Shown here in pieces: positions 1,953-47,708 of a DNA stretch of 64,000 nt. Position 1 is the stretch's first letter. The number at the start of each line of letters is the position of its first letter. This DNA is from an uncultured Gammaproteobacteria bacterium (GTDB taxonomy: Bacteria > Patescibacteriota > Microgenomatia > Levybacterales > UBA12049): contig CAZKJM010000001.1 of NCBI GenBank assembly GCA_964553245.1, positions 447,555-511,554 on the forward strand. The letters are read 5' to 3'. A program made the position numbers and the translations under genes. The notes under the pieces were generated by a model that was given only the letters and a program-made list of their open reading frames with translations, did not search any database and was not told the origin of the DNA.

Positions 1953-3877
1953 AGATTAGTTGGCGTGGTTGGGTTTCCTGTCTGTATTGGTTGTTGATCA
2001 GGAGTTATTTCCGGATTTAATTGTTGGGGAGTTTTGGCAAGCGGTGCTTCATCCGTTGGTTTTTCGCTTGATTCCGTTTCTGCCTGTTTTTGCATTTTTT
2101 CAAGCTCTTGAGGATTAGATGTAATTAGCGTGTGCTCAAAAGGAGCAGCAATTACTTTTATAGCAACGTGACTTTGTCCTGCAAAAAATAATCCTTCACC
2201 GATGTCTGCGGAAAGCAACAACTCCTTTTCTCCTTGAGAAAGATAAAATATTTGAGCAATATGGTCAATTTCGGTAGTGCTTTGCTTTAAAAGCACTTGA
2301 ATTGATGAATTGGATAAAACAGCTTTCCCGTAGTCTGTTGATAAAAAGTCCTGAACATCCTGCGTTGCTGTGGTAAGCGCAAGATAATATTTTCTTGATC
2401 TTTTGGCTATTCCATAAACAAACGAAGCTGAATCCTGATATTTCATTATGTACCAAGCTTCATCTAAGATAAGCAATCTCTTTTTAAGATTCTTTTTAAC
2501 TTTTGTCCAAACAAAGTCCAAAATTATATGCATTGCAACCGGTCTTAATTCTTCCTCCAGGGTTTTAATATTAAATACGGTAAAAGGATTCTTTATGTCA
2601 AAGTTAGATTGTTGATTAAATATGCCATTTAAGCTTCCTTTAATGAATTTTTCAAGTCTTAAGGCAAGTTCTCTTGCGGCAGGATCTTCCATTCCCAAAA
2701 GTACTTTGTATAAGTCCTCCATAAGTGGAGGTTGTTTTTTTTGAGTTGAAGGATCTGCGGTAATTCCTTTTTGTCTGTATGTTTCTACCAGAGCTCTATC
2801 AAGTATCGCGTCGTGGGCAGGATCAAGATTGCCCATAATTATTCTTAGCAAGCCGTGAAGAGATAATATTTTTAAGCCGAGTTCGTTTTCCCCTTCTTCG
2901 TAAAGACCAGAAAGATCAAAAGGATTAATTTTTACCGGCTCAGACGGAGTAAAAGAAACATGCTCCCCTCCTAATGTTTTTGTCAGCGCTTCGTATTCTC
3001 CTTCCGGATCAATAATTATTACTTCTGTGCCAAACATAAATTGTCGCATCGCTTCAAGCTTAATAAGATATGATTTTCCGGAACCTGATTTACCAAAAAC
3101 TACTTCATTTGCATTTTCCAGTGTGTATCGATCAAAAATAACTAGTGAACCGTTTTGTTCGTTGATGCCATACATTACTCCGCGATCCTGCGTTAAAGTA
3201 GCAGAGGTAAACGGAAAGGTAGAAGCAAGAGAAGTTGTGTCCATGTTTCTGGTTATGAATAATCTGTCTTGACCAATTGGAATTGTTGACTTAAACCCGT
3301 CTTCCATCTGAAGGGTAGCGGTTTTAGTAATCATCATAATGGAATTAAGTATTGAGTTTAGTCTTTTTGATGCTTCGCTAAGATCATCAAGATTATCCGA
3401 AGATAAAGTTATATACAAACTGAACTGGAAAAATCTTTCAACTCCTTTTGCAAGTTGCTCTTGTATTTCCAGTGCGTCATCAAGTGCTGCTCTTACTTTT
3501 GGATCAACAACTTTTCCCTCCTCGATTTCGGAGGAAATAGTCGCTTCCATTTCGGCAATTTTTCTTCTTAAATCTGCCAGAACATCGGAGGCAGAGGTTG
3601 GGTAAATAAACATTGATACATTCATTGAATGGTCAAAGTCAATTAAAGGCTGTAGCCAGTTTGGAGAAACATAACGTGGGTATCCTACTACAAAAAACGT
3701 ACGATAGTATAAATCTCCAACGCGGATATATTTAAAATCTACTTCAACCGATGGGGGAGCAATTACATCAACTAAAGAAACCATTCCTTTTTCAAGCTTT
3801 TTAATACCGGGACCTTTTGTGTTTTGCTGAACAGGGATTATTGGTTGTTGTTTTGTTTTCTTGCCAAATATTTTCAT
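1949..3877 (-). CDS. virB4: Type IV secretion ATPase, VirB4/TrbE/TraC family
   Basis: Walker A (VVFGKSGSGKSYLIKL) and the family-typical Walker B (LLILDEAWYIMK) are present. Length is 642 aa. Pilin and VirB6-like genes lie upstream in the same orientation. Confidence 0.85.
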   Translation of the reverse strand: MKIFGKKTKQQPIIPVQQNTKGPGIKKLEKGMVSLVDVIAPPSVEVDFKYIRVGDLYYRTFFVVGYPRYVSPNWLQPLIDFDHSMNVSMFIYPTSASDVLADLRRKIAEMEATISSEIEEGKVVDPKVRAALDDALEIQEQLAKGVERFFQFSLYITLSSDNLDDLSEASKRLNSILNSIMMITKTATLQMEDGFKSTIPIGQDRLFITRNMDTTSLASTFPFTSATLTQDRGVMYGINEQNGSLVIFDRYTLENANEVVFGKSGSGKSYLIKLEAMRQFMFGTEVIIIDPEGEYEALTKTLGGEHVSFTPSEPVKINPFDLSGLYEEGENELGLKILSLHGLLRIIMGNLDPAHDAILDRALVETYRQKGITADPSTQKKQPPLMEDLYKVLLGMEDPAARELALRLEKFIKGSLNGIFNQQSNFDIKNPFTVFNIKTLEEELRPVAMHIILDFVWTKVKKNLKKRLLILDEAWYIMKYQDSASFVYGIAKRSRKYYLALTTATQDVQDFLSTDYGKAVLSNSSIQVLLKQSTTEIDHIAQIFYLSQGEKELLLSADIGEGLFFAGQSHVAIKVIAAPFEHTLITSNPQELEKMQKQAETESSEKPTDEAPLAKTPQQLNPEITPDQQPIQTGNPTTPTNL

Positions 3878-14315: not shown

Positions 14316-14390
14316 CCTTCACCCGCCGAAGCCAGAATGGCGAAGGCGGGCTTCGATCGGGTTTCAGCGGACACAGTCCGCCATAATGAG

Positions 14391-14819
14391 TTATGAGTTA
14401 TGAGTTATGAGTTGTTTTGCTTCCTCCCAAACCTTTTTATCTGATTTGTAAGTTAATTTTTTTTCCACTTTTTCCACAGAAAGCCATTCAACGCTTTCCA
14501 TTTCTTTATCTTTTAAGCTTAAATCCTCAGTTAAATATTCCATTAAAAAATAATAAACGGTTTTCTTGATTTTTTGTTTTTCAAAAACATACCAATACTC
14601 AACCGGATTTAATGATTTTAGAATTTTGGCGTTAATACCTGTTTCTTCCAAAACTTCTCTTATTGCTGTGTCTTCTTTTTTTTCTTTTTCAATCTTATCT
14701 CCGATTAATCCCTTTGGAAAAACCCAGCCGTGATGTTGTGAATGCTGGCACACTAGAATTAAAAGTTTATTTTTTTCTTTTTTAAAGACTATGCCACCGG
14801 CAGAAAATTCAAATTTCAT
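14391..14819 (-). CDS. NUDIX hydrolase
   Basis: Nudix box GX5EX7REVLEETGI present (…KGLIGDKIEKEKKEDTAIREVLEETGINAKI). Overlaps the upstream GIY-YIG gene by 4 nt (ATGA). Confidence 0.7.
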   Translation of the reverse strand: MKFEFSAGGIVFKKEKNKLLILVCQHSQHHGWVFPKGLIGDKIEKEKKEDTAIREVLEETGINAKILKSLNPVEYWYVFEKQKIKKTVYYFLMEYLTEDLSLKDKEMESVEWLSVEKVEKKLTYKSDKKVWEEAKQLITHNS

Positions 14820-15058
14820 AATGGAAATAAATGTTTTTTTAAGAAAGCCCTTCCAGAACCAGATTTAAGGTATTTCTCAAAATTAAAAGCGGTATATTTA
14901 TCTATGAACGCAAAATAAGAGATCAGTCTTATTGGACGTAGTAATTTAGTTGCAGGTACATGTCCTTTTTTATGCCTTTCTATTCTTTCTTCCAAATTGC
15001 TTGTACAACCCGTATATGGTTTGCCGTTTTTACATTTTAAAAAATATACAAAAAACAT
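14816..15058 (-). CDS. Small stand-alone GIY-YIG domain protein (~80 aa)
   Basis: The GIY-YIG-like motif is MFFVYFLKCKNGKPYTGCTSNLEERIERHKKG. The track ORF (14816-15259) is over-extended across two tRNA genes. The real start is probably the Met at 15058, with AAGGAG 9 nt upstream. Confidence 0.6.
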   Translation of the reverse strand: MFFVYFLKCKNGKPYTGCTSNLEERIERHKKGHVPATKLLRPIRLISYFAFIDKYTAFNFEKYLKSGSGRAFLKKHLFPL

Positions 15059-15122
15059 ACTAATTTCTCCTTCGCGAACTACTAAGCGGATGTTATCCGC
15101 CGTAGCTCGCTTCGGCGAGCGA

Positions 15123-15212
15123 TGGCGGAGGAGAGAGGATTCGAACCTCTGTGAGCCGTAAAGCCCGCTCGGTTTTCGAGACCGGCCAAATAAACCACTC
15201 TTGCACTCCTCC
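15123..15212 (-). tRNA. tRNA-Ser(CGA), type II
   Basis: Reverse complement gives acceptor GGAGGAG/CTCCTCC, 3-bp D-stem CAA/TTG, anticodon loop CTCGAAA (one C·A mismatch at the stem top), a long variable arm, T-arm AGAGG-TTCGAAT-CCTCT and an encoded CCA. Confidence 0.65.
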
Positions 15213-16927: not shown

Positions 16928-17620
16928 ATGGCAATTTTGGATTTTTTGTTTCCAAAGAAATGCGTTTTATGTAAAAAAATCGGTAGTTTTCTTTGCCCGG
17001 ATTGCTTTTCCCATCTTTCTTTTGACGTAAAAAGTTTATGCTTAGTTTGTAATAAGCCATCTTTTAATGGGATAACTCACCCGAGTTGTAAGTCTAAATA
17101 TTCAATTGATGGCTGTTTTTCTGCACTTTCTTATAACAAAACTGCAAAAAAACTAATTTATAATTTTAAATATAAACCATACCTAACGGAATTAAAACAG
17201 GTTTTAGGAGATTTATTTTATGAAAGTCTTATTCAAAACGAGGAATTGATGCGACAAATAGGGAATAGCGTATGGTATATGGTTCCGATACCTTTGTCAA
17301 AATTAAAGCTAAGAAAGCGCGGATATAACCAATCGGAAATTTTAGCGAAGGAATTGGCAAAAAAGCTTAATTTTCCGATACATAATTTACTAAACAGAAT
17401 CCGCGATACTAAAACCCAAGTCGGATTAAAAGTGGAGGAAAGAAGACTTAATATTAAAAACGCTTTTCAAGTTAGTAGTCAGGAGTTAGTAGTTAGCAGT
17501 GAGAATGTTTTTCTTGTTGATGATTTAGTAACAACCGGATCAACTCTTTTGGAAGCTGCAAAAGTTCTTAGAAAAGCAGGCGTGAAAAAAGTTATTGGTT
17601 TGACTTTAGCGAGGGATTAA
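16928..17620 (+). CDS. comF: ComF family protein (phosphoribosyltransferase domain)
   Basis: An N-terminal Cys-rich zinc finger (CVLCKK…CPDC…CLVCNKP) and a C-terminal PRTase motif (VFLVDDLVTTGSTL). Confidence 0.7.
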   Translation: MAILDFLFPKKCVLCKKIGSFLCPDCFSHLSFDVKSLCLVCNKPSFNGITHPSCKSKYSIDGCFSALSYNKTAKKLIYNFKYKPYLTELKQVLGDLFYESLIQNEELMRQIGNSVWYMVPIPLSKLKLRKRGYNQSEILAKELAKKLNFPIHNLLNRIRDTKTQVGLKVEERRLNIKNAFQVSSQELVVSSENVFLVDDLVTTGSTLLEAAKVLRKAGVKKVIGLTLARD

Positions 17621-17645
17621 AAAACCTATGAAATTGAACAGAAGA

Positions 17646-17918
17646 TTAAATTAATCGTTTGTTTCGAAAAGCAAAACCAGAATTAGTTTTAAGATATTTT
17701 TCAAAGTCAAGCGCCTTTTCCTTCGAAGAAAAGGATGCGTAAAATACGAGCTTAAATGGTCTAAGATTTTTTGTTGACGATACCATTCCATTTTGATGGT
17801 TTTTTAAGCGCGCTTTTAAATTAGATGTTGAGCCATGGTAAAAAGATTTATCTTTTAATTGGATAATGTAAGCAAAATACACAAATTCAGAATACCAAAA
17901 AATGCCCCACTTCGCCAA
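17646..17918 (-). CDS. Small stand-alone GIY-YIG domain protein (~90 aa), paralogue of 14816-15058
   Basis: The motif FVYFAYIIQLKDKSFYHGSTSNLKARLKNHQNG… aligns with the other copy (…KYLKSGSG/KYLKTNSG…). It lies immediately downstream of the tmRNA. Confidence 0.6.
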   Translation of the reverse strand: MAKWGIFWYSEFVYFAYIIQLKDKSFYHGSTSNLKARLKNHQNGMVSSTKNLRPFKLVFYASFSSKEKALDFEKYLKTNSGFAFRNKRLI

Positions 17919-17998
17919 CTAATTTGTTTAAACTCCGTGATTTAAAGAGGCTTCGTTTGGGGCACTCTTCTCAAACCATGTCATGCACTTATTTTTTA

Positions 17999-18038
17999 GA
18001 AGTGTGGTTTACCACTTCGTAGCTCCGATAAGATCGGA
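17999..18038 (-). other. Two stable hairpins just 3' of the tmRNA (GAAGTG-8nt-CACTTC and CTCCGAT-AAG-ATCGGAG)
   Basis: Perfect inverted repeats were read directly. On the - strand they are followed by an A-tract, not a U-tract, so they are not canonical intrinsic terminators. Confidence 0.4.
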
Positions 18039-18046
18039 GTGAAGAG

Positions 18047-18412
18047 TGGAGATGTCGAGCTATGAACTCGAGTCCAAGAAATTCGTTAAAAAACATCTAC
18101 AAGCTTATTCGATTTTTTAAATTTCGCTTTATTCTTATCCAATCGAAAGGAAAAAATAAAGTTAAGATTAAATAAATTCTATAAGGACCTAATCAACTTC
18201 CTTATTATTTCCCAAACTGTGTTTATGCCTAGATAATCCCGTTTAGGAAAAGATTAAATAGACAGTCTTTTAGTTATATGCGTATAAAGGCATATATGCC
18301 AATTGACTTCTAGAATTACTTCTAGCATTTATTTTTTGACTAGTTTAAAGACATTTAGTCGTTGTCTGCTTGCAGTTTTTAAAGTGCTTTCCTGTCGATG
18401 CAATGCATCCCC
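18047..18412 (-). ncRNA. ssrA: tmRNA (ssrA), ~366 nt
   Basis: The - strand 5' end is GGGGATGCATTGCATCGACAGG, matching the conserved GGGGNUG…UCGACNGG. The 3' end is T-arm TCGAG-TTCATAG-CTCGA followed directly by CATCTCC-A. That acceptor pairs with the 5' GGGGATG, including the G3·U wobble. It lies immediately downstream of smpB. The tag-peptide frame was not resolved by eye. Confidence 0.7.
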
Positions 18413-18448
18413 ATTGAACAGGAATTATACCACTTTGAAGCTAAAGAG

Positions 18449-18889
18449 TCAAATTTTACCCCTCAATTCTTCTTCTATTTCTCGATTTAAATCCCGTCTT
18501 TTTATGGCTTCTTTTTTCTCGTATTTTTTCTTTCCCTTACCAAGTCCAAGCTCAACTTTTATAAAACCGTGCTTAATGTACATTGAAACAGGCACAATTG
18601 CAAGATTTTGTCCATCAGTTTTGCCTTTTAAGGCTGTGATTTCTGCTTTGTGAAGCAAAAGCTTTCTTGTTCTTGCCTGATCATAATCTTTAAGACTTGC
18701 GTATTCATATGGAAAAATTTTAGCATTAACTAAGTATGCTTCGCTTCCTTGAATCTTGACAAAGCTTCCTGTTAAATCCGCATGCCCATTTTTAACTGCT
18801 TTTACTTCATAGCCATACAAGTTTATTCCGGCTTCAATCCGGTCTTGAAGTGAATAATCATAGTTAGCGCGCTTATTAAGAATTCTCAT
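18449..18889 (-). CDS. smpB: SsrA-binding protein SmpB
   Basis: Conserved SmpB sequence (NKRANYDY…GYEVKAVK…LLLHK…) followed by a basic C-terminal tail. Confidence 0.85.
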   Translation of the reverse strand: MRILNKRANYDYSLQDRIEAGINLYGYEVKAVKNGHADLTGSFVKIQGSEAYLVNAKIFPYEYASLKDYDQARTRKLLLHKAEITALKGKTDGQNLAIVPVSMYIKHGFIKVELGLGKGKKKYEKKEAIKRRDLNREIEEELRGKI

Positions 18890-18937
18890 GGTTCGATTTC
18901 ACTCACCATAATACGGCAAAGAAAGGGAAAAGTAAAA

Positions 18938-20779
18938 TTATTTTAAATCTATTTCGTAGATTTTGCCGGAGGATAGCACCAGAACTTTTTTATCGTTTTC
19001 CAAAACTTCAAATTCTTTTGCAGAGGATAAAATATTTGATGAATATTGTTCTTTATAATTTCCATTTTTTTCTAAAACAACGATTCTTGAATTACCATTG
19101 TCTAAAACATAAACATAATCAGAATCTACGTCGGTATAAATTTTGCTAGGGTTGGAAAGCGGGGAATCAACCCCGGTTAAATTAAATGCGTCTGCCTTTC
19201 CTTTGGTGAATTTAAGAATTGTTCCATCAGAAAGAAGGATCCAGATTGATCCATCTATTGCAATTGATTTTGCATTTTTTAGATCTGGTTCGGAATCGGT
19301 AAAATAATTTATTTGTCCGAATCCCTCGGATCCTCCTACAAACTTTATAACCCCGCCTTTTGTTTTATCCAAAACATAAATGTTGCTTAAGTATGGAAAA
19401 ACTCCTACAGGGTTTTTCCAGTAATCTTCATTTTTGATGATTTCTTTTGTGTTTTCTTTTCCTTTGGTTGTAGAATAAACACCGTCTTTGTCTATGGAAT
19501 AAATATTACTACTGTCTTTTGCAAAAGCAACAGCTTTGGATTCTTCAACGAATTTTAAGAATTCACTTTGGTCTTTTCCAACCTCTTTTGCCTTAACAGT
19601 GTTTATCTTAGAGGTATTTTTAACGGATTCTTCTATTTTTACCAGTAATTCAAGAATTTGTTGTTCCTCTTTGGAATTTTTATCAAATTTTTCTTTTCCA
19701 TCTTCCAGGATTTTTTTAGCCGAAACAAAACTATCCCTTGCCAAATTCTGATTTAAGTCCTCAAGGCTTTTTCCTTCGTCGTATTTTTTAAGAGCAACAG
19801 GATAAACTTGTTCAAAAAGAGCTTTTGTTTTAGCTTCGTTTTGTTTATTAATTGCAAAAATAATACTCGTAATCAAAACAACCAAAATAATTACAGTAAT
19901 TGAAAGATACATTCTTTTTGAGTGACTTAAGCTTATTGGTTTTTTTGGAACGATTTTTTTAAGAAAGGATGCTAGGAAAACATTTACGCTTCCTAATATT
20001 GCAAACTTATTGTAAGAAACCGTTTTTACAGGAGCTTCTTTTATGAGCTCTTCTTCGAGTGTTCTGTCTTCTTCGGATTCTTTTTTGTACTCCTCTTCAG
20101 CGCTAACTTCTTGTTCATCTTTTGGAACTTCTTTAAAGCTCATAATTATAGAAGCTGCTCCGCCTTCGTTGTGTCTGTGAATAATCGGCGCTAAAGTTTC
20201 AGCTATTTCATTTGGCGGGAGATTGTCCAAAATAGATGTTAATTTTTCTGAGGGGACAAGGTTTGAAAATTGGTTTGTTTCCAAAATCACAATATCGTTT
20301 TCCATAACATAACCTGACGCGCCTTTAATATTATTCTCCTCGTCTTTTGCTAGATTAAGGATTAGTCCGAAATTATTGTTTCTTTTTAAATAAATTTTTC
20401 CAGAGCCGAATACAAAAACATATAAAACGTTTTTTGCCAATGAGGTAATTACAAAAGAAGATCGTATGTTCTCCGGAATTTTTTTTGAGGTTGCTATGAT
20501 GGCATTTTTTACCGAATCAAGATTTTTATCTTCTAAGGCAAAATACTCGCTTTCTAGAGTGTCTAAGACTTCTTTTCCCAAAATTGCCAGAAAATCTTTA
20601 TCTTCTATTTTATCTTCTAAGGATTCTTCTGGATTTTCACCCTTTGTCTCTTTTTCTAAAGAAATAACTGCAAAAAGTTTCCCTGCATTGTATGCTTGTG
20701 CCCAAGAAGTAGTGTTTGGATTAGCAACTATTTTTGCAAAATTTATATTCGAGTCAGGCATTAATTTATAATATAACAA
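18938..20779 (-). CDS. Hypothetical single-pass membrane protein with a large N-terminal cytoplasmic domain, one TM helix (ISLSHSKRMYLSITVIILVVLITSIIFAI) and a C-terminal beta-propeller-like repeat region (NHL/YVTN-like)
   Basis: The C-terminal ~200 aa carry repeated strands such as YSIDKDGVY, IYVLDKTKG, IWILLSDG and YVYVLDNGNSRIVVL. The N-terminal domain is unassigned. Confidence 0.4.
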   Translation of the reverse strand: MLYYKLMPDSNINFAKIVANPNTTSWAQAYNAGKLFAVISLEKETKGENPEESLEDKIEDKDFLAILGKEVLDTLESEYFALEDKNLDSVKNAIIATSKKIPENIRSSFVITSLAKNVLYVFVFGSGKIYLKRNNNFGLILNLAKDEENNIKGASGYVMENDIVILETNQFSNLVPSEKLTSILDNLPPNEIAETLAPIIHRHNEGGAASIIMSFKEVPKDEQEVSAEEEYKKESEEDRTLEEELIKEAPVKTVSYNKFAILGSVNVFLASFLKKIVPKKPISLSHSKRMYLSITVIILVVLITSIIFAINKQNEAKTKALFEQVYPVALKKYDEGKSLEDLNQNLARDSFVSAKKILEDGKEKFDKNSKEEQQILELLVKIEESVKNTSKINTVKAKEVGKDQSEFLKFVEESKAVAFAKDSSNIYSIDKDGVYSTTKGKENTKEIIKNEDYWKNPVGVFPYLSNIYVLDKTKGGVIKFVGGSEGFGQINYFTDSEPDLKNAKSIAIDGSIWILLSDGTILKFTKGKADAFNLTGVDSPLSNPSKIYTDVDSDYVYVLDNGNSRIVVLEKNGNYKEQYSSNILSSAKEFEVLENDKKVLVLSSGKIYEIDLK

Positions 20780-26858: not shown

Positions 26859-27488
26859 ATGTGGGAAATTATTCCTGGAATATTGGAAAAAGACTGGAAT
26901 TCAATTGAGGGAAAGATAGGGCTTATTAAGTCTTTTGCAAAGACAATACAAATAGATGTTATTGATGGAAAATTTGCGCCAAACGCTACTTTTTTAGACC
27001 CAAAACCATTTAAAAAATATTCTGGCGACATTTTTTTTGAAGTTCAACTAATGGTTGAAAACCCACTGGATTACATAGAAAATTTTGCAAACGCAGGTTT
27101 TAAAAGATTTATAGGCCAAATAGAAGAAATGCCGGATCAAAAAACCTTTATCGATTTTGCGAAAAAATTTGGAGAAGCAGGATTAGCAATTGATGCTCAA
27201 ACGTCATTGGATAACATAAAGGTGGATTTTAATTACCCTGACTGTTTTACATTAATGAGCGTTAAAGCTGGTTTTTCGGGGCAACTGTTTATTTCATCTG
27301 TCTTGGAAAAGACAAAAGCCTTAAGAGAAAAAACTTTAAAGCCAATAGAGATAGACGGTGGGATAAATAGAAGTACAATAAGAGGGGTTAAAGAATTTGG
27401 CGCAAACAGATGTGTGGTAAATAGTGCATTATTTAAAGCAAATAATTTAAAAAATGAATTTGAAAACCTTCGTGATTTATCATTTTAG
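26859..27488 (+). CDS. rpe: Ribulose-phosphate 3-epimerase-like protein
   Basis: IIPGIL…IDVIDGKFAPNATF…VQLMVENP resembles Rpe motifs (IDVMDGHFVPNLTF, HLMV). Confidence 0.65.
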   Translation: MWEIIPGILEKDWNSIEGKIGLIKSFAKTIQIDVIDGKFAPNATFLDPKPFKKYSGDIFFEVQLMVENPLDYIENFANAGFKRFIGQIEEMPDQKTFIDFAKKFGEAGLAIDAQTSLDNIKVDFNYPDCFTLMSVKAGFSGQLFISSVLEKTKALREKTLKPIEIDGGINRSTIRGVKEFGANRCVVNSALFKANNLKNEFENLRDLSF

Positions 27489-29674
27489 TTTATAGCAACG
27501 GGAACAGCGCTTGGGGTAGCAATAAAAGTGCAATTTACAATTTTTTCCGTTCCTTTTATGAAATATTCATTTTTACTTTGGCAAAACTTACTAACAATGT
27601 TTTCTGGAACGATAGGCGTTTCTTTTGGTTTATCTTTAATAAGGTGAGTCATAAGCTTATTCCAAATCGGTGCAGCTCCTGTTATTCCGGAGGCAATTCC
27701 ACTCATCGGGCTATTGTCGTTATTTCCGACCCATACGGCAACAAGTACGGATTGAGTATATCCAATAGTCCAGTTATCCCTTATGTTATTTGAAGTTCCT
27801 GTTTTAACCGATACATATTTACCAGGAATGTTTAAGGGAGAATTTGTTCCAAACTCAATTGCTCTTGCATTATTGTCAGCTAAAATATCGGAGATAATGA
27901 ACGCAACCCCTTTATCCAGTATTCTTGTTTTTGAAATATTTTTCTTTTCGTATAAAACTTCTCCTTTTGAATCGGTTACTTTTAATAATGGGTTAAGATT
28001 TACTTTTTCTCCCTGATTTGCCAAGGATCCATAGGCTACTGCCATATCAGTCATTTTTACCTCCGCTGCCCCAAGAGTTATTGAGAGTCCGTAATCTTTA
28101 GCCTCTTTCCATGTGGTTATTCCCATCCTTTTTGCCAAGCCGACCATTTTTTCGATACCGATTTTATTCAATGTTTTAACAGCTGGAATATTGATTGAAT
28201 TTCCGAGAGCGGTTCTTAATGTCATAAGCCCCCTAAATTGTCCATCGTAATTAACCGGAATATAATCTTCTGCTCCCGAAAACCTAAATCTTATAGGAGA
28301 ATCGTCAATTAAAGTTGCAGATGTAAATCCATTGTTTAACGCTTCGCTGTAGGTAATTACTTTTATTGTTGAGCCGGGTTGTCTTAGGGCTGTTGTAACA
28401 TTATAGTTTCCGCTTGCAGGGTCTTCGTAATCTTTACTTCCAACCATTGCTAAAATATCACCGTTTTTTGGGTTGGTTATTAATGCTGCGCCATTGGTTA
28501 AGTTATAAAAATAACTATTGCTGACTTCGTTTCTTACTGTTTCTTCGGCAAATTCTTGAGTTTTTAGATCAAGGCTTGTGACAACATTTAGTCCTCCCTT
28601 TTCAACCATTGGAAGCCCGTATTTTTTAATAAGTTGTTCTTTTATATACATTACAAAGTGAGGTGCAAGAATCGGCGATTGGGGAGAGCGAATATTTAAT
28701 TCTTCTTGTATTGCTTGCTCTTTTTGTTTTTTAGTAATATATCTTAGTTCTTGCATTCTTTCCAAAACCTCTTTTTGCCTTTTTTTCCATAAATCAGGAT
28801 TTTCTCCGTAAGGGGAATAAATACTTGGTGCCTTTGGCATCCCTGCTAAAAATGCAGCCTCTGCCAGTGATACATCTTTAACTGATTTATTAAAGTATGT
28901 TTGTGAAGCAGCTTCTATTCCCCAAGAAGTCCCGCCATATGGAACTTGATTGAAGTACATTTGTAAAATTTGGTCTTTTGTGTAAATTTGCTCTGCCCAG
29001 AAAGCCAAAATAATTTCTTTTATTTTTCTTTCTATAGTAATTTCCGGAGTTAATAAGCTCGATTTAATTAATTGTTGAGTAATTGTTGATCCTCCCTGAA
29101 GAGGTTCTCCGGAAAGGTCTGCGATTGCAGCTCTAACTATAGCTGTTAAATCAAACCCTGGATTTTTATAAAAATCCTTGTCTTCTATTGCAATAGTTGC
29201 GTCTTTTAAATATTTTGGAATATTGGACAAGGGCACAATGGTTCTATTTTGATTTGCGTAAATTTGGTATAAGAGCTTATTGTTTCGATCGTAAATTTTC
29301 GTGGTTTGAGCAATTTCTGCTCCTGATAAGGTTTTTGGATCAGGCAAATTTTGAAGAAAAATTAAAACTAATAAGGGTATAAAAACTAAAAATAACGAGC
29401 AAAAAACCCCGATTATAAAATATCTAAATTTCGTAAAAAAGGGTAGAGGGAAAAGTTTCACTGGTTTTTTGTGTTTCAGTTTTTTAATTTTTATTTTCTT
29501 TTTCTTCTCAGAGATTTTATATTTAAAAACAGGAAGCTTGGTCTTTTTTACTCTTATTTTAGAAAAAAATGTTTTTACAAGAGATAACGGCAGTTTTAAG
29601 ATAAAAAGCGTAATATCTCCGATAAGAATGAAAAAATTAGTTATTAAAACAATAATTTTTAAAATTATTCCCAT
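27485..29674 (-). CDS. Class A penicillin-binding protein (bifunctional glycosyltransferase GT51 / transpeptidase), PBP1A-like
   Basis: Carries the GT51 motifs EDKDFYKNPGFD and GGSTITQQL and the TP motifs RQPGSTIK, SxN and KTGT, with an N-terminal TM. Confidence 0.85.
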   Translation of the reverse strand: MGIILKIIVLITNFFILIGDITLFILKLPLSLVKTFFSKIRVKKTKLPVFKYKISEKKKKIKIKKLKHKKPVKLFPLPFFTKFRYFIIGVFCSLFLVFIPLLVLIFLQNLPDPKTLSGAEIAQTTKIYDRNNKLLYQIYANQNRTIVPLSNIPKYLKDATIAIEDKDFYKNPGFDLTAIVRAAIADLSGEPLQGGSTITQQLIKSSLLTPEITIERKIKEIILAFWAEQIYTKDQILQMYFNQVPYGGTSWGIEAASQTYFNKSVKDVSLAEAAFLAGMPKAPSIYSPYGENPDLWKKRQKEVLERMQELRYITKKQKEQAIQEELNIRSPQSPILAPHFVMYIKEQLIKKYGLPMVEKGGLNVVTSLDLKTQEFAEETVRNEVSNSYFYNLTNGAALITNPKNGDILAMVGSKDYEDPASGNYNVTTALRQPGSTIKVITYSEALNNGFTSATLIDDSPIRFRFSGAEDYIPVNYDGQFRGLMTLRTALGNSINIPAVKTLNKIGIEKMVGLAKRMGITTWKEAKDYGLSITLGAAEVKMTDMAVAYGSLANQGEKVNLNPLLKVTDSKGEVLYEKKNISKTRILDKGVAFIISDILADNNARAIEFGTNSPLNIPGKYVSVKTGTSNNIRDNWTIGYTQSVLVAVWVGNNDNSPMSGIASGITGAAPIWNKLMTHLIKDKPKETPIVPENIVSKFCQSKNEYFIKGTEKIVNCTFIATPSAVPVAIN

Positions 29675-29770
29675 ATTTTAAAAGAGGCAGATTAATAAAA
29701 ATAAATTCAAAAGATAAAATCAGGTTTGCCAAATTATACTATAGGAGCCTTTTAAAGAAAAGGACTTCTT

Positions 29771-31945
29771 TTATGGAGTTGGTGATGGGGTTAAAGTTGG
29801 TGATGGATGGGGACAATTTAAACAATACTTATCTCCGGTAAGATCTGTAATTATTTGTTGCTCTTTTAATTCTAAATTATCTGTTTTCCCCGGAGGGGGA
29901 AGATCTTGAGTATCTTTGTCAATCCAAACTTGCTGATTTGAAATGTTTGCGTATTTACCTTCAGTTCCTTTTATAAAATATTCGTAACGTGCTTGGCATC
30001 CTGATGGGCTATCTTTTGAGCTTGATAAAGATCCTGATAGTGAACATACTGATTTTTGAATTACATTTGAAGGTCGTTGAATTGACTGAGGTAGTTTATC
30101 TTTTAAAAGCCTAACCATGATTTCGTGCCAAATCGGTGCAGCTCCTGTTATACCGGAAACCAATCCGCTCATTGGGGTATTGTCATTATTTCCAACCCAC
30201 GTTGTAACAACATATGATGGAGTATAACCAATGGTCCAGTTGTCTCGGTAATCGTTTGTTGTTCCTGTTTTTACAGAAACAATTTGATTTGGAATTCTAA
30301 GTTCTGAATTTGAACCAAAGGCAATAAGTCTTGCGTTATTATCGGCTAAAATATCGGATATAATAAATGAAACGCCGTCAGGTAGCACTTTTTTCCCGAA
30401 AATTGGGCTTTTTGGCGGTATGTATTCCTCTAATGTCTTACCGCGTTTGTCGATTACTTTTAAAATCGGATGTAAGTCAACTTTATATCCTCCGGTTGCA
30501 AAAACACCGAAAGCCTGAGTCATATCATACATGGTGACTTCTCCTCCTCCAAGAGTAAGAGATAATCCGTAATCGTCAGGATTTTTAAAGGTTGTTATTC
30601 CCATTGCAGAAGCGGTTGCGATCATATTTTTTATTCCGTTTGCTTTTAGCATTTTTACAGCAGGGATGTTTAAAGAGCTTCCTAAAGAGTCTCTCATAGA
30701 AACAATTCCGTGGAATTTTCCGTCGTAATTAACCGGACAATAATTCTTTCCGCCCTGATTTGGAAAACAGGTTTTTTGATCTATAAAAGGCGTTGCTGGA
30801 GAGTAGCCATTGATTAATCCAACTGCATAATTAATTGGCTTTATAGAAGAACCCGGTTGTCTTAGGGAAAGAGCAACATTTACGTTTCCATCAATGTCGG
30901 TGTCAAAATAATTCCTGCTTCCAACCATTGCTAAAACTTCACCAGTTGATGGATTGGATACCATAGCGGCACCATTTGATACGCGGTAACTTTTGAGGCT
31001 TTTTACTTCCGCTGCAACTGTTGCCTGAACCATGTCCTGAATATCTAGATCAAGGCTGGTTGTGACTTTAAGTCCTCCTTCTTCAACAATTTTTTCTCCG
31101 TATTTTTTAATTAAAAGATCCCTAATAAAAAGGGAAAAATGAGGAGCTTTAATCGAAGTGGAAAAGCGTTTATAATTTAAAGGTTCTTTTTCCGCTTTTT
31201 CTTTTTGCTCTTTAGTTATATATTTTTCTTCGTACATTGCTTGAAGAACCTGAAATTGTCTTTGTTTTGCTCGTTCAGGATGGGAACCAAATGGGGAAAA
31301 AGCTGTTGGTGCTTCGGGAAGACCTGTTAAAAGAGCGGATTCGGCAAGATTTAATTCCTTTGCCTTTTTGCCAAAATATGTTTGCGCCGCAGCCTCTATT
31401 CCATAGGCGGTTCCTCCATAGGGTGTTTGATTAAGATACATTTCTAAAATTTTATTTTTTGAATATAAAAATTCTGTTGCGAATGCTAAAATGACTTCTT
31501 TTATTTTTCTGGTTATTGTCCTTTCTTGGCTGAGCAAACTATTTTTGACAAGTTGCTGAGTTAGAGTTGATCCTCCCTGAAGCTCTTTATGAAAAATAAT
31601 GGAGTAAGCTGCTCTTGTAATTCCTTTTAAATCGATTGCTCCATGTGAATAAAAATTTCGATCTTCTATTGCGATAGTAGCTTGTTGAATTTGCTTGGGA
31701 ATTTGCGAGAGAGGGATAAATGTTTGATCCTTAGAGCGATAAATATTATAAAGCAATTTTCCGTTTTTATCATAAATTTGACTAGATTGTGGATTTGAAG
31801 AGCTGCCTAATTTTGTTGGGGAAGGAAGATCTTTTAAAAAATAAATATAAAAAGGAATAAGGAGAACAATAAGAAAAGTAAAAATAAATATCAGTTTCTT
31901 AGGAATTTTTTTAGCTTTTTTTAGTTTCTTTTTAATGACCTGCAC
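29771..31945 (-). CDS. Class A penicillin-binding protein, second tandem paralogue
   Basis: EDRNFYSHGAIDLKG…GGSTLTQQL, RQPGSSIKP and KTGTT. It is collinear with the neighbouring PBP and has a Pro/Thr-rich C-terminal tail. Confidence 0.85.
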   Translation of the reverse strand: MQVIKKKLKKAKKIPKKLIFIFTFLIVLLIPFYIYFLKDLPSPTKLGSSSNPQSSQIYDKNGKLLYNIYRSKDQTFIPLSQIPKQIQQATIAIEDRNFYSHGAIDLKGITRAAYSIIFHKELQGGSTLTQQLVKNSLLSQERTITRKIKEVILAFATEFLYSKNKILEMYLNQTPYGGTAYGIEAAAQTYFGKKAKELNLAESALLTGLPEAPTAFSPFGSHPERAKQRQFQVLQAMYEEKYITKEQKEKAEKEPLNYKRFSTSIKAPHFSLFIRDLLIKKYGEKIVEEGGLKVTTSLDLDIQDMVQATVAAEVKSLKSYRVSNGAAMVSNPSTGEVLAMVGSRNYFDTDIDGNVNVALSLRQPGSSIKPINYAVGLINGYSPATPFIDQKTCFPNQGGKNYCPVNYDGKFHGIVSMRDSLGSSLNIPAVKMLKANGIKNMIATASAMGITTFKNPDDYGLSLTLGGGEVTMYDMTQAFGVFATGGYKVDLHPILKVIDKRGKTLEEYIPPKSPIFGKKVLPDGVSFIISDILADNNARLIAFGSNSELRIPNQIVSVKTGTTNDYRDNWTIGYTPSYVVTTWVGNNDNTPMSGLVSGITGAAPIWHEIMVRLLKDKLPQSIQRPSNVIQKSVCSLSGSLSSSKDSPSGCQARYEYFIKGTEGKYANISNQQVWIDKDTQDLPPPGKTDNLELKEQQIITDLTGDKYCLNCPHPSPTLTPSPTP

Positions 31946-45488: not shown

Positions 45489-45560
45489 GCGTCTGTAGCT
45501 CAGTGGCAGAGCGCTACTCTTATAAAGTAGATGTCCTTGGTTCGAACCCAAGCAGACGCA
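45489..45560 (+). tRNA. tRNA-Ile(TAT)
   Basis: GCGTCTG-TA-GCTC-AGTGGCA-GAGC-G-CTACT-CTTATAA-AGTAG-ATGTC-CTTGG-TTCGAAC-CCAAG-CAGACGC-A. Every stem pairs perfectly and the anticodon is UAU. Confidence 0.75.
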
Positions 45561-45563
45561 CAA

Positions 45564-46873: not shown

Positions 46874-47659
46874 ATGTTGAAACAAAGAGAAATAATTAAG
46901 AGGGCAGCATTGGAGGCTGGAAAAATAATTTTGGCAACTAAGCCAACGGAAAATGTAAAGGAAAAAGCAGGAAGGGCGAATCTAGTTACAGAAGCGGATC
47001 TTAAAAGCGAAAATGCAATAGTTGAGCTTATAAATCAACACTTTCCCGAAGACTTAATATTGTCAGAAGAAACAAAAAGTAACATCCCAAATCCATTATT
47101 AGCAGAAAAGCTCTGGGTTGTGGACCCAATTGACGGAACAAATAATTTTAGATACGAAAGAAATTATTCTTGTGTTTCAATTGCCTATGCGGAAAAAGGC
47201 GTAGTGCAATTAGGGGTAGTTTATGATCCGTTTAGAGATGAAATGTTTTATGCAGAAAAAATGCAGGGAGCATTTTTAAACGGAAAAAAGATTTTTGTCT
47301 CCAAGTTAAAAGATTTAGCAAGGTCAGTGGTAGCCAGTGATAATTCTTACGAGTCCGAAGGAACCAAGTATAACCTTGAGTTATTTTTAAAATTAAATCC
47401 AGCGCCTTGGTTTTTGATAAAAGGAAGCGCCACTTTAACAATGTGCGAAGTTGCTGCCGGTAGAATTGATCTCTATTTTCACAATTATTTAAAACCATGG
47501 GATAATGCGGCAGCGTTTTTAATAGTTGAGGAAGCAGGCGGAGTAGTAAGAGGTATTAGCGGTAATAATGCAAATTTTATGTCGGAAAGCGTAATTTGTG
47601 GAAACGAAGAACTTGTAAAAAACTTTGTTGCGGGGCTAGGAGTTGCGCCTAGCCTGTGA
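46874..47659 (+). CDS. Inositol monophosphatase family protein (SuhB-like)
   Basis: Signature WVVDPIDGTNNF and the metal-binding EE motif. Confidence 0.75.
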   Translation: MLKQREIIKRAALEAGKIILATKPTENVKEKAGRANLVTEADLKSENAIVELINQHFPEDLILSEETKSNIPNPLLAEKLWVVDPIDGTNNFRYERNYSCVSIAYAEKGVVQLGVVYDPFRDEMFYAEKMQGAFLNGKKIFVSKLKDLARSVVASDNSYESEGTKYNLELFLKLNPAPWFLIKGSATLTMCEVAAGRIDLYFHNYLKPWDNAAAFLIVEEAGGVVRGISGNNANFMSESVICGNEELVKNFVAGLGVAPSL

Positions 47660-47708
47660 GATTATGAGCCTCACGTGCACTGTACACTACCCCGCACGTA
47701 AAGCACAT

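Follow-up and report, generated by a model that had tools for sequence, protein, structure and literature searches.

The function of tmRNA is to rescue stalled ribosomes, and nearly every bacterium has one. The 3' end of its gene, ssrA, is also said to be a site where genomic islands and prophages have integrated, as reportedly described by Williams and co-workers. In a survey of 710 unique tmRNA tags, hydrophobic tag ends were found almost everywhere and a charged end was found only in Carsonella (2014; PMC4131195). In Carsonella ruddii, whose genome is extremely reduced and whose SmpB is degenerate, the tag ends in lysine (Hudson, Lau and Williams 2014, PMC4131195). GIY-YIG genes have been described in the rRNA genes of CPR bacteria, where they lie in non-intron insertion sequences that are neither group I nor group II introns; an ssrA-linked arrangement is not described there (PMC11270868).

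The locus analyzed here lies in a stretch of 64,000 nt of DNA (hereafter the window). Its tmRNA resembles the standard one-piece form (RF00023; E. coli SsrA) in its match to the full model, G3·U acceptor, discriminator A, T arm, helix 2 and four pseudoknots, as well as in resuming at GCU behind an A-rich UAAAU context, in the position of its stop codon beside helix 5 and in having smpB next to it. It differs from that form in that CCA is unencoded, the T-loop is UUCAUAG, the 18-codon tag ends in ...YAYN and not ...LAA, the resume codon lies at the base of a hairpin and ARAGORN misses the gene at default settings. As in Carsonella, a non-hydrophobic tag end hindered the standard tools and the frame was found by comparing relatives (PMC4131195); unlike in Carsonella, the terminal residue is Asn, SmpB is complete and such ends occur in only 3 of 62 relatives. 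Behind the tmRNA lies a small GIY-YIG gene, which recalls the small GIY-YIG genes lodged in or beside stable-RNA genes of CPR bacteria (PMC11270868), except that the present gene is located outside the RNA gene, right after its 3' end, with an element of ∼150 nt and a tight linkage to ssrA. Its product is similar to UPF0213 or YhbQ-type proteins (PDB 1ZG2, BH0048), which have ∼80-100 aa and consist of the GIY-YIG catalytic domain only, whereas it has no NCBIfam name and its linkage to ssrA is not known from them. In contrast with ssrA islands, the insert is just ∼0.4 kb and has neither an integrase nor a direct repeat of the tmRNA 3' segment.

A complete tmRNA gene behind smpB

Positions 18412..18047 of the window are a genuine tmRNA gene, complete and of ordinary build. 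The features of this gene and of the region upstream are as follows.

18449..18889, minus strand: smpB, 146 aa, the protein partner of tmRNA (Pfam SmpB, 163 bits)
18424..18452, minus strand: ssrA promoter-like site TTGACT-17-TGgTATAAT (11/12 consensus matches plus TG extension)
18047..18412, minus strand: mature one-piece tmRNA (ssrA), 366 nt, ending at discriminator A 18047 (Rfam RF00023)
18108..18367, minus strand: pseudoknots PK1 (18367..18338), PK2 (18264..18208), PK3 (18205..18166) and PK4 (18161..18108), stems located
18296..18275, minus strand: helix 5 (poorly aligned; support limited to the window and close relatives)
18048..18075, minus strand: 3' half of the tRNA-like domain, with T stem UCGAG/CUCGA (18071..18067 with 18059..18055)
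18066..18060, minus strand: T-loop UUCAUAG, within this 3' half
18054..18048, minus strand: acceptor 3' strand CAUCUCC, pairing with 18412..18406

An earlier note, made from the sequence alone, had proposed a tmRNA directly downstream of smpB. A search with RF00023 supported this call: the model matched 18412..18044 over its whole length (1-374 of 374) with 97.4 bits, about twice the gathering score of 47 (E 9e-37), and the gene begins 36 nt past the smpB stop codon. The conserved 5' end reads GGGGAUGCAUUGCAUCGACAGG from 18412 on the minus strand, and the T arm runs straight into the acceptor strand (3' end ...GGAC-UCGAG-UUCAUAG-CUCGA-CAUCUCC-A), both as that note had described. The GGGGAUG/CAUCUCC acceptor pairing, including G3·U, and the discriminator A at 18047 were also read correctly. 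CCA had been thought not to be encoded, and indeed CUC comes next after A18047; encoded CCA is absent from 5-6 of the 8 tRNAs of the window too.

The comparison set comprised 62 tmRNA sequences of Levybacteria/Microgenomates (CPR) relatives. The pairing proposed for the tRNA-like domain is kept in these relatives: the 7-bp acceptor stem is 99.3% paired, with G3·U in 61 of the 62, and in the T stem, where pairing reaches 100%, each of the 5 pairs has compensatory changes. Compared with a T-loop of the GUUCRANNC type, UUCAUAG retains U55, C56 and A57 and has U instead of A at position 58, as in most of the clade, in which only U55 and C56 are invariant, A57 is nearly so and the T54-A58 pair is not conserved. 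Both stems of each of PK1-PK4 are 80-100% paired in the 62 sequences and show compensatory changes, and helix 2 is present with a conserved GUAGA internal loop; these pseudoknots and helix 2 link both domains. For the hairpin in the tag region, as for helix 5, the alignment is poor and support is limited to the window and close relatives. Over the whole molecule, 85.8% of positions at 109 pairs were paired, compared with 37-50% when the partners were slid, and 81 pairs had compensatory changes, a level reached in none of 500 shuffles.

The smpB product exceeded the cut-offs of two NCBIfam equivalog models (165.4 bits against a cut-off of 130, and 156.3 bits). In the promoter-like site, the -35 hexamer shares positions with the smpB stop codon and the end of the -10 hexamer lies 11 nt ahead of G1 of the tmRNA, a layout and distance kept in ∼38 of the 62 relatives. 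Transcription of ssrA probably depends on a strong promoter of its own that overlaps the end of smpB, and the predicted transcription start would leave a leader of 4-6 nt. RNase P would take off this short leader and an RNase Z-type cleavage behind A18047 would release the trailer, whereupon the unencoded CCA would be supplied by a CCA-adding enzyme; we infer these steps from the established maturation of tRNA and tmRNA in genes lacking CCA. The conserved identity elements suggest that the product would be alanylated by AlaRS and be active in trans-translation. Considering all of these features, it is very probable that the locus is a functional smpB-ssrA pair of a Levybacteria-like (Microgenomates, CPR) bacterium, with the mature tmRNA and the trailer as proposed here.

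The degradation tag and detection by ARAGORN

On comparison with related genes, the tag frame is now settled: it runs from GCU to UAA and encodes ARSNSRSQLAYMPLYAYN.

18270..18326, minus strand: tag reading frame, resume codon GCU 18326..18324, 18 codons ARSNSRSQLAYMPLYAYN, stop UAA 18272..18270 (homology and ARAGORN -ps80)

The frame is homologous to the tags of relatives, for example ARNQYSSGQFAYAYA in L001, and ARAGORN with a lowered threshold (-ps80) returned the identical peptide. The context upstream of the resume codon, AAAUAAAU|GCU, matches the Rfam consensus; the codon itself lies at the base of a 6-bp hairpin (CUAGAA-GUAA-UUCUAG), and the stop codon follows 2 nt past helix 5. An AUG frame giving MLEVILEVNWHICLYTHITKRLSI was rejected, as it has no homology to relatives' tags. 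The earlier remark that the candidate frames lack the usual ...LAA end also applies to the settled tag, which ends in ...YAYN.

Among the 62 relatives, the terminal tag residue is A in 54, V in 4, N in 3 and S in 1, and the stop codon is UAA in every case. Aromatic-rich ends (AYAYA, AYAFA) are dominant in the clade. Tags typically have a hydrophobic end (...AA, ...FA or ...VA), whereas that of the window ends in Asn; a hydrophobic end is a usual property of tags and not a structural criterion for the tmRNA family. Asn-ending tags are found in three branches unrelated to one another (those of the window, L033 and L057), and the frame is intact in each. An assembly error at the Asn codon was considered and dismissed: over 2869 nt there is no difference between the window and an assembled JGI contig (this contig may derive from the same sample), and the AAC-UAA end arises independently in the two other lineages.

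According to the model of trans-translation, SmpB and alanyl-tmRNA would enter the empty A site, and the ribosome would switch to the tag frame and terminate at UAA, so that ARSNSRSQLAYMPLYAYN would be added to stalled nascent chains after the alanine carried by tmRNA. The tagged protein, ending in ...AARSNSRSQLAYMPLYAYN, would then be passed to a protease; an FtsH gene is present in the window. Gur and Sauer reportedly found in 2008 that Mycoplasma ssrA tags are degraded by Lon, not ClpXP. By analogy with these tags, the last residues may be free to drift here while the protease reads other parts of the tag. The Asn ends in three lineages relax the hydrophobic-end rule for tmRNA tags and raise the question of the tag-reading protease in these reduced genomes.

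The earlier note had also suggested ARAGORN as a check, which was successful only in part. With default settings no tmRNA was called at this gene, whereas with -ps80 the gene was found and labelled 'tmRNAp'. Default ARAGORN also missed 43 of the 62 clade sequences (about 70%), all of which were found by the Rfam model. Changing the last codon from AAC to GCT in silico restored default detection of the window gene, as did a canonical T-loop; adding CCA did not. Thus, the default miss is due to the terminal Asn and the non-canonical T-loop. Since the standard finder misses ∼70% of the clade, ssrA will often be listed as missing in annotations of these CPR lineages though it is present.

The polar tag end, the T-loop without A58 and the rejection by default ARAGORN count against the reading of the locus as a functional pair. 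They could indicate a decaying pseudogene or non-functional copy in which the tag signal has been lost and the T-loop damaged, with ARAGORN finding the gene below its default threshold and as 'tmRNAp' only. The helices are all intact, however, the Rfam score is twice the threshold, and the T-loop variant is shared throughout the clade, on a stem that covaries perfectly. The default settings reject 43 of 62 clade sequences as well, Asn-ending tags with intact frames and UAA stops occur in three separate lineages, and both promoter and smpB are intact. No second ssrA was found in the 64-kb window by ARAGORN or by the RF00023 scan. Decay of the gene is therefore extremely improbable; judged against the relatives, the degenerate T-loop and the terminal Asn are peculiarities of the lineage and do not signal decay.

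The structured trailer and its GIY-YIG gene

The region behind the tmRNA contains the following features.

17897..18048, minus strand: type A structured element (3' trailer), roughly 150 nt (15 loci; RNAalifold consensus)
18048..18041 with 17970..17963, minus strand: P1, CACUCUUC with GAAGAGUG, long-range closing helix of the type A element
18039..18023, minus strand: hairpin 1, perfect 7-bp stem CUCCGAU-CUU-AUCGGAG
18015..18004, minus strand: hairpin 2 in the register GUGG-UAAA-CCAC (kept in relatives)
18018..17999, minus strand: hairpin 2 in the register GAAGUG/CACUUC (single-sequence fold)
17964..17959 with 17908..17903, minus strand: third stem, UGCCCC with GGGGCA, after an A/U-rich linker and followed by U6 (17902..17897)
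17897..17889, minus strand: -10-like TGgTATTCT, 6 nt upstream of the GIY-YIG gene
17646..17882, minus strand: GIY-YIG gene, 78 aa, GTG start, no Shine-Dalgarno (Pfam GIY-YIG, 57 bits)

Two perfect hairpins had been noticed behind the tmRNA. Both exist and hairpin 1 is perfect, whereas hairpin 2 is perfect in only one of its two registers. The GAAGUG/CACUUC register was rejected, as it is not conserved, unlike the GUGG(C)/(G)CCAC register. Neither hairpin is an obvious terminator, just as had been observed: UACG follows hairpin 1, UAAAAAAU follows hairpin 2 and a terminator scan of 17500..19100 gave 0 sites. About 100 nt beyond the two hairpins there is a covarying third stem, UGCCCC/GGGGCA followed by UUUUUU. 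This stem encloses 50 nt and was skipped by the scan because of its long loop. The combination of GC stem and U tract occurs in 6 distinct loci, and two relatives (L235 and L236) lack the U tract. Most likely, this GC-rich stem and U6 would end the ssrA transcript ∼150 nt past the mature 3' end.

As comparison of the loci indicates, the two hairpins make up the 5' half of a larger conserved element and do not stand alone. P1, which begins at the last two tmRNA bases, would close a three-way junction holding both hairpins. Among 10 sequences, 96.6% of the element's pairs were formed, compared with 41-48% when partners were slid, and 10 pairs were compensatory, the structure having been derived from those same 10 aligned sequences. 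P1 varies as CACUCUUC/GAAGAGUG, CACCCUUC/GAAGGGUG and CACUCCGC/GCGGAGUG, and some stem positions are U·G pairs, which fit the minus strand only. The single-sequence minimum-energy fold of the trailer is different (CCACUC pairs with GAGUGG around hairpin 1, and the terminator stem is longer), and the reverse strand folds about as well.

A search of 17860..18075 against Rfam 15 (permissive filters, E≤10) returned just the tmRNA 3' end and a chance microRNA match. Assignments of the trailer to hatchet, HDV-like, twister or tRNA-like families were dropped, with no relevant Rfam match at E≤10. A dispersed repeat or MITE was likewise rejected, as the trailer is single copy in the 64-kb window (BLAST and motif searches). 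A scan of viral contigs for CGAAGUGGCNNNGCCACA gave 72 matches, none with the second motif near, and these were taken as chance. The conserved structured trailer has no counterpart in Rfam, and the cassette of element and gene is undescribed.

The GIY-YIG protein is identical to P0001 (78 aa); its best relative of solved structure is the UPF0213 protein of PDB 1ZG2 (E 3e-8), and none of the NCBIfam models names it. A GIY-YIG paralogue at 15058..14816 scored 20 bits with TIGR01453, against a cut-off of 56. A like layout in L097, L038, L119, L035, L233 and L236 suggests a leaderless start, and the gene is probably expressed from its own -10 box. All of the 15 close homologues are preceded by a type A element and 14 of them lie directly behind a tmRNA; across the related ssrA loci, the gene follows the tmRNA immediately in about 13 of 62. 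We know of no reported linkage between UPF0213 proteins and ssrA, and the literature on GIY-YIG proteins with tmRNA or with CPR yielded no description of it.

Possible roles of the element and its gene

The distribution of the gene could be explained by a GIY-YIG cassette of mobile or selfish nature, with the hairpins and the element at its left end, that docks at the 3' ends of tRNA-like genes (tmRNA, tRNA-Ser) in the manner of free-standing homing-endonuclease genes or of islands that integrate at ssrA. The conserved repeats of the CCAC(N)CUUCG type would then serve as recognition or recombination sites, instead of or besides RNA helices; the motif CCAC(N)CUUC occurs 5 times, in both orientations, within 145 bp. 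The insert is found in only ∼13 of 62 ssrA loci, where it separates ssrA from a convergent comF-like gene; in other relatives this gene sits 34-48 nt from the tmRNA. Window positions 18045..16941 are missing from the closest relative (L001), and the break coincides exactly with the tmRNA 3' end. Such patchy presence at one fixed site beside a conserved target is what is expected of a homing endonuclease. All 8 homologues that were looked up adjoin a tmRNA 3' end, even where smpB is elsewhere (L236 and L242). There are also tandem copies of the element (L119, L038 and L243), gene-less hairpin remnants (L110 and L134), an element (still starting CCACUCUUCG) with its gene but no adjoining tmRNA (L035), and a second GIY-YIG gene, which likewise follows two hairpins and lies 64 nt behind tRNA-Ser(cga). 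The published GIY-YIG genes within non-intron insertions in rRNA genes of CPR bacteria (PMC11270868) point in the same direction.

Other observations make this mobile origin rather unlikely. Site-specific GIY-YIG homing enzymes of the I-TevI or Seg type combine a catalytic with a DNA-binding domain (∼200 aa or more), whereas the 78-aa protein is a bare UPF0213-type catalytic domain. No integrase or transposase was found nearby. A second copy of the tmRNA 3' end, as an island att repeat would provide, was sought in the window with up to 3 mismatches and none was found, and the element is single copy in the 64 kb. The variable hairpins keep their pairing through compensatory changes, and the U·G pairs fit one strand, both of which point to RNA. 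The synteny over several candidate phyla could be explained just as well by ancient vertical inheritance followed by losses. A folded RNA outside Rfam and a small GIY-YIG gene, tied to the ssrA 3' end across several candidate phyla, are a testable lead, and they could represent a new module for stable-RNA processing or termination, or a minimal mobile element.

The position of the element before 15 of 15 type A GIY-YIG genes would also fit a cis-regulatory leader (attenuator or riboswitch-like), in which the junction senses a ligand or protein and sets the balance between a stop at U6 and read-through from the ssrA promoter. The element has the look of an aptamer with an expression platform: the P1 3' strand GAAGAGUG abuts the terminator 5' strand (GUGCCCC), with two bases shared, the repeated segments of the CACUCUUCG and CGAAGUG types can pair in alternative ways, and the internal loop of the terminator stem (AACGNAG opposite CGAAGU) is conserved. 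We consider this reading improbable. A -10-like box precedes the start codon by 6-9 nt and there is no Shine-Dalgarno, which suggests that the gene has a leaderless transcript of its own; read-through RNA would then lack a ribosome-binding site. Furthermore, the stem has no U tract in L235 and L236, no known riboswitch class in Rfam matches, and the first half of the element persists without the gene in L110 and L134.

A tRNA-like element can direct 3'-end cleavage, as in MALAT1-mascRNA. Similarly, the element might guide formation of the tmRNA 3' end, either as a self-cleaving ribozyme with its cut at the 5' edge of the element or as a three-helix mimic of tRNA that brings in RNase P (or RNase Z) for a cut directly behind the discriminator. 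In all copies P1 starts no more than 2 nt from the mature 3' end, the compact form in L233 (∼60 nt, a 9-bp closing helix and two hairpins) is roughly tRNA-sized, and the lack of an encoded CCA in any case calls for an endonucleolytic cut behind A18047. Such a role is nevertheless very improbable: in about three quarters of the relatives, a tmRNA of this kind is made although nothing more than an ordinary terminator follows it, so that the element is unnecessary for maturation. In addition, no Rfam ribozyme or tRNA model matches at E≤10, hairpin 2 has a loop of 3-4 nt that is not a T-loop and usually lies ∼30 nt from the P1 3' strand itself, and L035 has the element without tmRNA.

In E. coli, SmrB cuts mRNA on stalled ribosomes. 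It is conceivable, though decidedly improbable, that the structured RNA (∼150 nt) and the 78-aa GIY-YIG protein form an undescribed two-part system for 3' ends of tRNA-like genes in Microgenomates, that is, either a minimal mobile cassette in which the RNA provides the target recognition missing from the bare nuclease domain or a small nuclease that assists tmRNA during the rescue of ribosomes, for instance with an SmrB-like cut in the mRNA. Both versions draw solely on the strict linkage of gene, element and ssrA. For the cassette version, the P1 strand is complementary to the junction of tmRNA end and trailer.

The tmRNA gene and its relatives

The earlier note had placed an unannotated tmRNA gene (ssrA) at 18047-18412, directly downstream of smpB, and the Rfam search that it had suggested confirmed this location. 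The tmRNA model RF00023 (gathering score 47) matched 18412..18044 on the minus strand over its full length (model positions 1-374) with 97.4 bits (E 9e-37), twice the gathering score, and no further tmRNA was found by Rfam in the 64-kb window. The RNA starts with GGGGAUGCAUUGCAUCGACAGG at 18412, and its 3' end, ...GGACUCGAGUUCAUAGCUCGACAUCUCCA at 18047, runs on as CUCUUC, which agrees with the claim that CCA is not encoded. The smpB stop codon lies 36 nt before the tmRNA start. Every tmRNA helix could be located in the window RNA, including pseudoknots PK1 to PK4.

Features of smpB and the tmRNA
18889..18449, minus strand: smpB; Pfam SmpB 163 bits, NCBIfam equivalogs 165 and 156 bits, both above cut-offs
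tmRNA positions 1-7 with 359-365: acceptor stem
four segments: helix 2
tmRNA positions 46-75: PK1
tmRNA positions 117-138: helix 5
tmRNA positions 149-205: PK2
tmRNA positions 208-247: PK3
tmRNA positions 252-305: PK4
tmRNA positions 342-358: T arm

SmpB relatives in genome and metagenome collections belonged to Levybacteria and other Microgenomates (CPR/Patescibacteria). Among these loci, denoted by L numbers, L001 was the best genome match (SmpB identity 84%), and a JGI metagenome contig (L081) was 100% identical to the window across 2869 nt. Of 40 related loci searched with Rfam, 35 had a full-length tmRNA, and an HMM built from these 35 retrieved more copies, giving 62 distinct full-length sequences, window included. 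In this alignment, standard pairs occupied 85.8% of cells, compared with 37-50% when partners were slid by 1-3 columns; two-sided changes occurred at 81 of 109 pairs, and none of 500 shuffles reached the observed values. Pairing reached 99.3% in the acceptor stem, where 61 of the 62 tmRNAs have G3·U, and 100% in the T stem, where each of the five pairs showed compensatory changes; both stems of each pseudoknot showed covariation. Helix 5 and the resume-codon hairpin were seen in the window; they fall in the tag region, which varies in length and is unreliably aligned, and are outside the covariation counts. Lineage-specific insertions of ~18-45 nt occurred after PK1 stem 1 (L102), before the helix 2 3' strand (L030) and, as a GC hairpin, after PK4 (L019); the rest of these three tmRNAs was normal.

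A promoter-like site, TTGACT-17-TGgTATAAT (18452..18424), agreed with the consensus at 11 of 12 positions. The -35 hexamer shares bases with the smpB stop codon, the end of the -10 hexamer is 11 nt upstream of G1, and the same layout and distance were present in ~38 of the 62 relatives. The short 5' leader would be removed by RNase P. Five or six of the window's eight tRNA genes likewise lack CCA, implying a CCA-adding enzyme and, probably, an endonucleolytic 3' cut. The tRNA 3' ends concerned are 14317, 15217, 16156, 45561, 47627 and 47832; of the eight genes, tRNA-Ser(cga) and tRNA-Ser(uga) alone have CCA. Two tRNA genes were unusual. One, at 45489..45561 (plus strand; ARAGORN, and Rfam tRNA 72.6 bits), is a tRNA-Ile with anticodon UAU, an uncommon route to reading AUA in bacteria. 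The other is a short tRNA-Met (70 nt, 47627..47696, minus strand, anticodon at position 31), called by ARAGORN and absent from Rfam tRNA matches at or above the gathering threshold.

We conclude with high confidence that the window RNA is a functional, standard one-piece tmRNA that would act with SmpB in trans-translation. A pseudogene was considered and rejected: the deviations are clade-wide or recurrent, and every helix, the promoter and smpB are intact. As a tmRNA the gene is ordinary; what it adds is an Asn-ending tag, an annotation blind spot, and an undescribed ssrA-linked element with a GIY-YIG gene. It was also observed that ssrA adjoins smpB on the opposite strand in L002, L003, L004, L018, L028, L033, L040, L085, L087, L090, L099 and L104, so inversion of the smpB-ssrA unit has happened repeatedly within the clade.

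Tag peptide and detection by ARAGORN

The tag frame, left unidentified in the earlier note, was obtained from the Rfam alignment consensus, in which the resume codon is GCU at tmRNA position 87 (18326..18324). The window tag is ARSNSRSQLAYMPLYAYN, with its UAA stop at 18272..18270, and that of the closest relative is ARNQYSSGQFAYAYA. Tags read from the aligned column start with A(R/N/K)... and mostly end in AYAYA, AYAFA, ALAYA or LAA; UAA was the stop in all 62, and the terminal residue was A in 54, V in 4, N in 3 and S in 1. The other two Asn-ending tags, ...RAYLN (L033) and ...PAYAYN (L057), lie on different branches and were also returned by ARAGORN at lowered threshold; as this ending recurs in the clade, an assembly error is unlikely. 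The 2014 tmRNA Website survey described 710 unique tags as short and hydrophobic, with Carsonella the only species having a charged tag end (PMC4131195), and an Asn end is thus uncommon. A 6-bp hairpin, CUAGAA-GUAA-UUCUAG (18325..18310, minus strand), has the resume codon at its base; analogous pairings, for example AUGCUA...UAGCAU, were seen in relatives, in a region too poorly aligned for covariation.

The ARAGORN check proposed in the earlier note did not return the gene at default settings, which gave eight tRNAs and no tmRNA; at 80% of threshold (-ps80), the same gene and the same tag as in the homology-based call were obtained. Changing the last tag codon in silico from AAC to GCT restored default detection, as did replacing the T-loop alone with UUCGAAU; adding CCA did not. 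The window T-loop is UUCAUAG. Across the clade, U55 and C56 are the sole fully conserved loop positions and A57 is nearly so; variation at 54 and 58 means that the standard T54-A58 pair is not maintained. ARAGORN found 19 of the 62 clade tmRNAs at default and 60 at -ps80, and this low sensitivity probably explains the unannotated tmRNA genes. Where default ARAGORN does call a clade tmRNA, it may choose a wrong or truncated tag: VRKDCSYLSSLTGIVWA at position 205 versus the homologous frame ANDTIRSIRQFALKAVDGVDATFGAQTPLRFDYALAV in L015, and a start at position 119 versus the homologous frame AGKNRIAALKAEAEAIRAELFGVRPSLALAA in L030.

The type A trailer and the GIY-YIG gene

In the majority of relatives, the tmRNA is directly followed by a classical terminator (A tract, GC hairpin and U tract). 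The window and a minority of relatives instead carry a conserved trailer, the type A element, which in the window precedes a GIY-YIG gene. The two tandem hairpins of the earlier note are real; they do not stand alone, however, but form half of this larger element, which has a terminator-like last stem.

Features of the type A element and the following gene (minus strand)
18048..18041 with 17970..17963: P1, the long-range closing helix, CACUCUUC (last two tmRNA bases included) with GAAGAGUG
18039..18023: hairpin 1
between hairpins 1 and 2: motif GCUACGAAG
18015..18004: hairpin 2, GUGG-UAAA-CCAC
after hairpin 2: A/U-rich linker
17964..17959 with 17908..17903: last stem, UGCCCC with GGGGCA, enclosing a variable hairpin and a conserved internal loop
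17902..17897: U6 tract after the last stem
17882..17646: GIY-YIG gene, 78 aa, GTG start; Pfam 57 bits

RNAalifold predicted this same layout from ten type A copies. Paired cells made up 96.6% (41-48% when slid), with compensatory changes at 10 of 27 pairs, for a structure derived from the same small alignment. P1 occurs as CACUCUUC/GAAGAGUG, CACCCUUC/GAAGGGUG and CACUCCGC/GCGGAGUG, hairpin 1 differs in sequence in almost all copies, and U·G pairs at some stem positions are compatible with this strand alone. The minimum-energy fold of the window trailer favours an alternative that pairs repeated CACUCUUCG-type with CGAAGUG-type segments, and the opposite strand folds about equally well. The trailer is single copy within the window and matched no Rfam family, even at E<=10.

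The last stem with its U tract looks like the actual terminator. We therefore commit to the simplest mechanism fitting all copies, in which the ssrA precursor would carry the element as its 3' trailer, terminate at the U-tract stem and lose the trailer through cleavage after A18047. That it guides tmRNA 3'-end formation ranks third of three further roles and seems very improbable. A regulatory leader of the GIY-YIG gene, ranked second, is unlikely. The U tract ends eighteen nt before that gene, which has no Shine-Dalgarno sequence upstream; the end of a -10-like box, TGgTATTCT, is 6 nt upstream of the start codon, and this layout is repeated in relatives, which together suggest that the gene has a promoter of its own and a leaderless mRNA.

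The nearest solved structure to the 78-aa protein is 1ZG2, a UPF0213 protein. A GIY-YIG gene lies directly 3' of the tmRNA in ~13 of the 62 ssrA loci, in two subfamilies with one trailer type each, type A (the window's) and type B. Eight more close homologues (67-76% identical), picked for long contigs, were all immediately preceded by a tmRNA 3' end and a type A element. Altogether, the element accompanied 15 of 15 type A genes and a tmRNA lay upstream of 14 (exception, L035); the linkage was kept where smpB was not adjacent (L236) or was on the other side (L242). Of all the results, this strict gene-element-ssrA linkage across candidate phyla stands out as the most interesting and the least accounted for. 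No description of it was found in our literature search; the nearest published parallel found is that of GIY-YIG genes in non-intron insertions of CPR rRNA genes (PMC11270868). The type B trailer (first ~110 nt after the tmRNA; L019, L008, L029, L079, L100 and L067) begins CCGCGUCAAACGCGGCUUCGC, contains GGUGAUCGCGUUNGACGCGACAC and precedes the second subfamily, 42-48% identical to the window protein.

Cassette turnover and similar modules

In relatives without the cassette (trailer element plus GIY-YIG gene), the tmRNA and the usual ssrA neighbour, a convergent comF-like gene, are 34-48 nt apart. In L001, the closest relative, window 18045..16941 is missing and the break falls at the tmRNA end; type A elements occur in tandem in L119, L038 and L243; and L110 and L134 have the two-hairpin half alone, then an ordinary terminator. 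A second GIY-YIG gene (15058..14816, minus strand; Pfam 48.5 bits, 45% identity to the first) starts 64 nt past the tRNA-Ser(cga) 3' end. These observations show that the cassette is not a stable part of its loci. The trailer might be the terminal part of a mobile GIY-YIG cassette targeting 3' ends of tRNA-like genes, which ranks first of the three further roles and is still doubtful; the precursor-trailer role remains our preferred reading.

The tRNA-Ser(cga) spacer (within 14816..15123) contains hairpins GCUCGC-CGAA-GCGAGC and GCGGAU-AACA-UCCGC with CUACG between, then an AAGGAG ribosome-binding site, so hairpins plus a GIY-YIG gene are a theme shared with the tmRNA trailer. Hairpins with flanking CGAAG/CUUCG motifs were also seen after tRNA-Ser(gga) (14318..14357) and, in several relatives (L119, L109, L110, L012, L008 and L017), at the 5' flank of the tmRNA, directly upstream of it, where they replace the usual promoter. 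Such hairpins resemble a general module family around stable-RNA genes in this group. In the window, a ComF-family phosphoribosyltransferase (16928..17620, plus strand) is convergent with the GIY-YIG gene, with 25 nt between stop codons. Other genes of the context are a TraG/VirB4-like ATPase (1949..3877, minus), two tandem class A penicillin-binding proteins (27485..31945, minus), a ribonucleotide reductase (38307..40793, plus) and an FtsH protease (53493..55370, plus).
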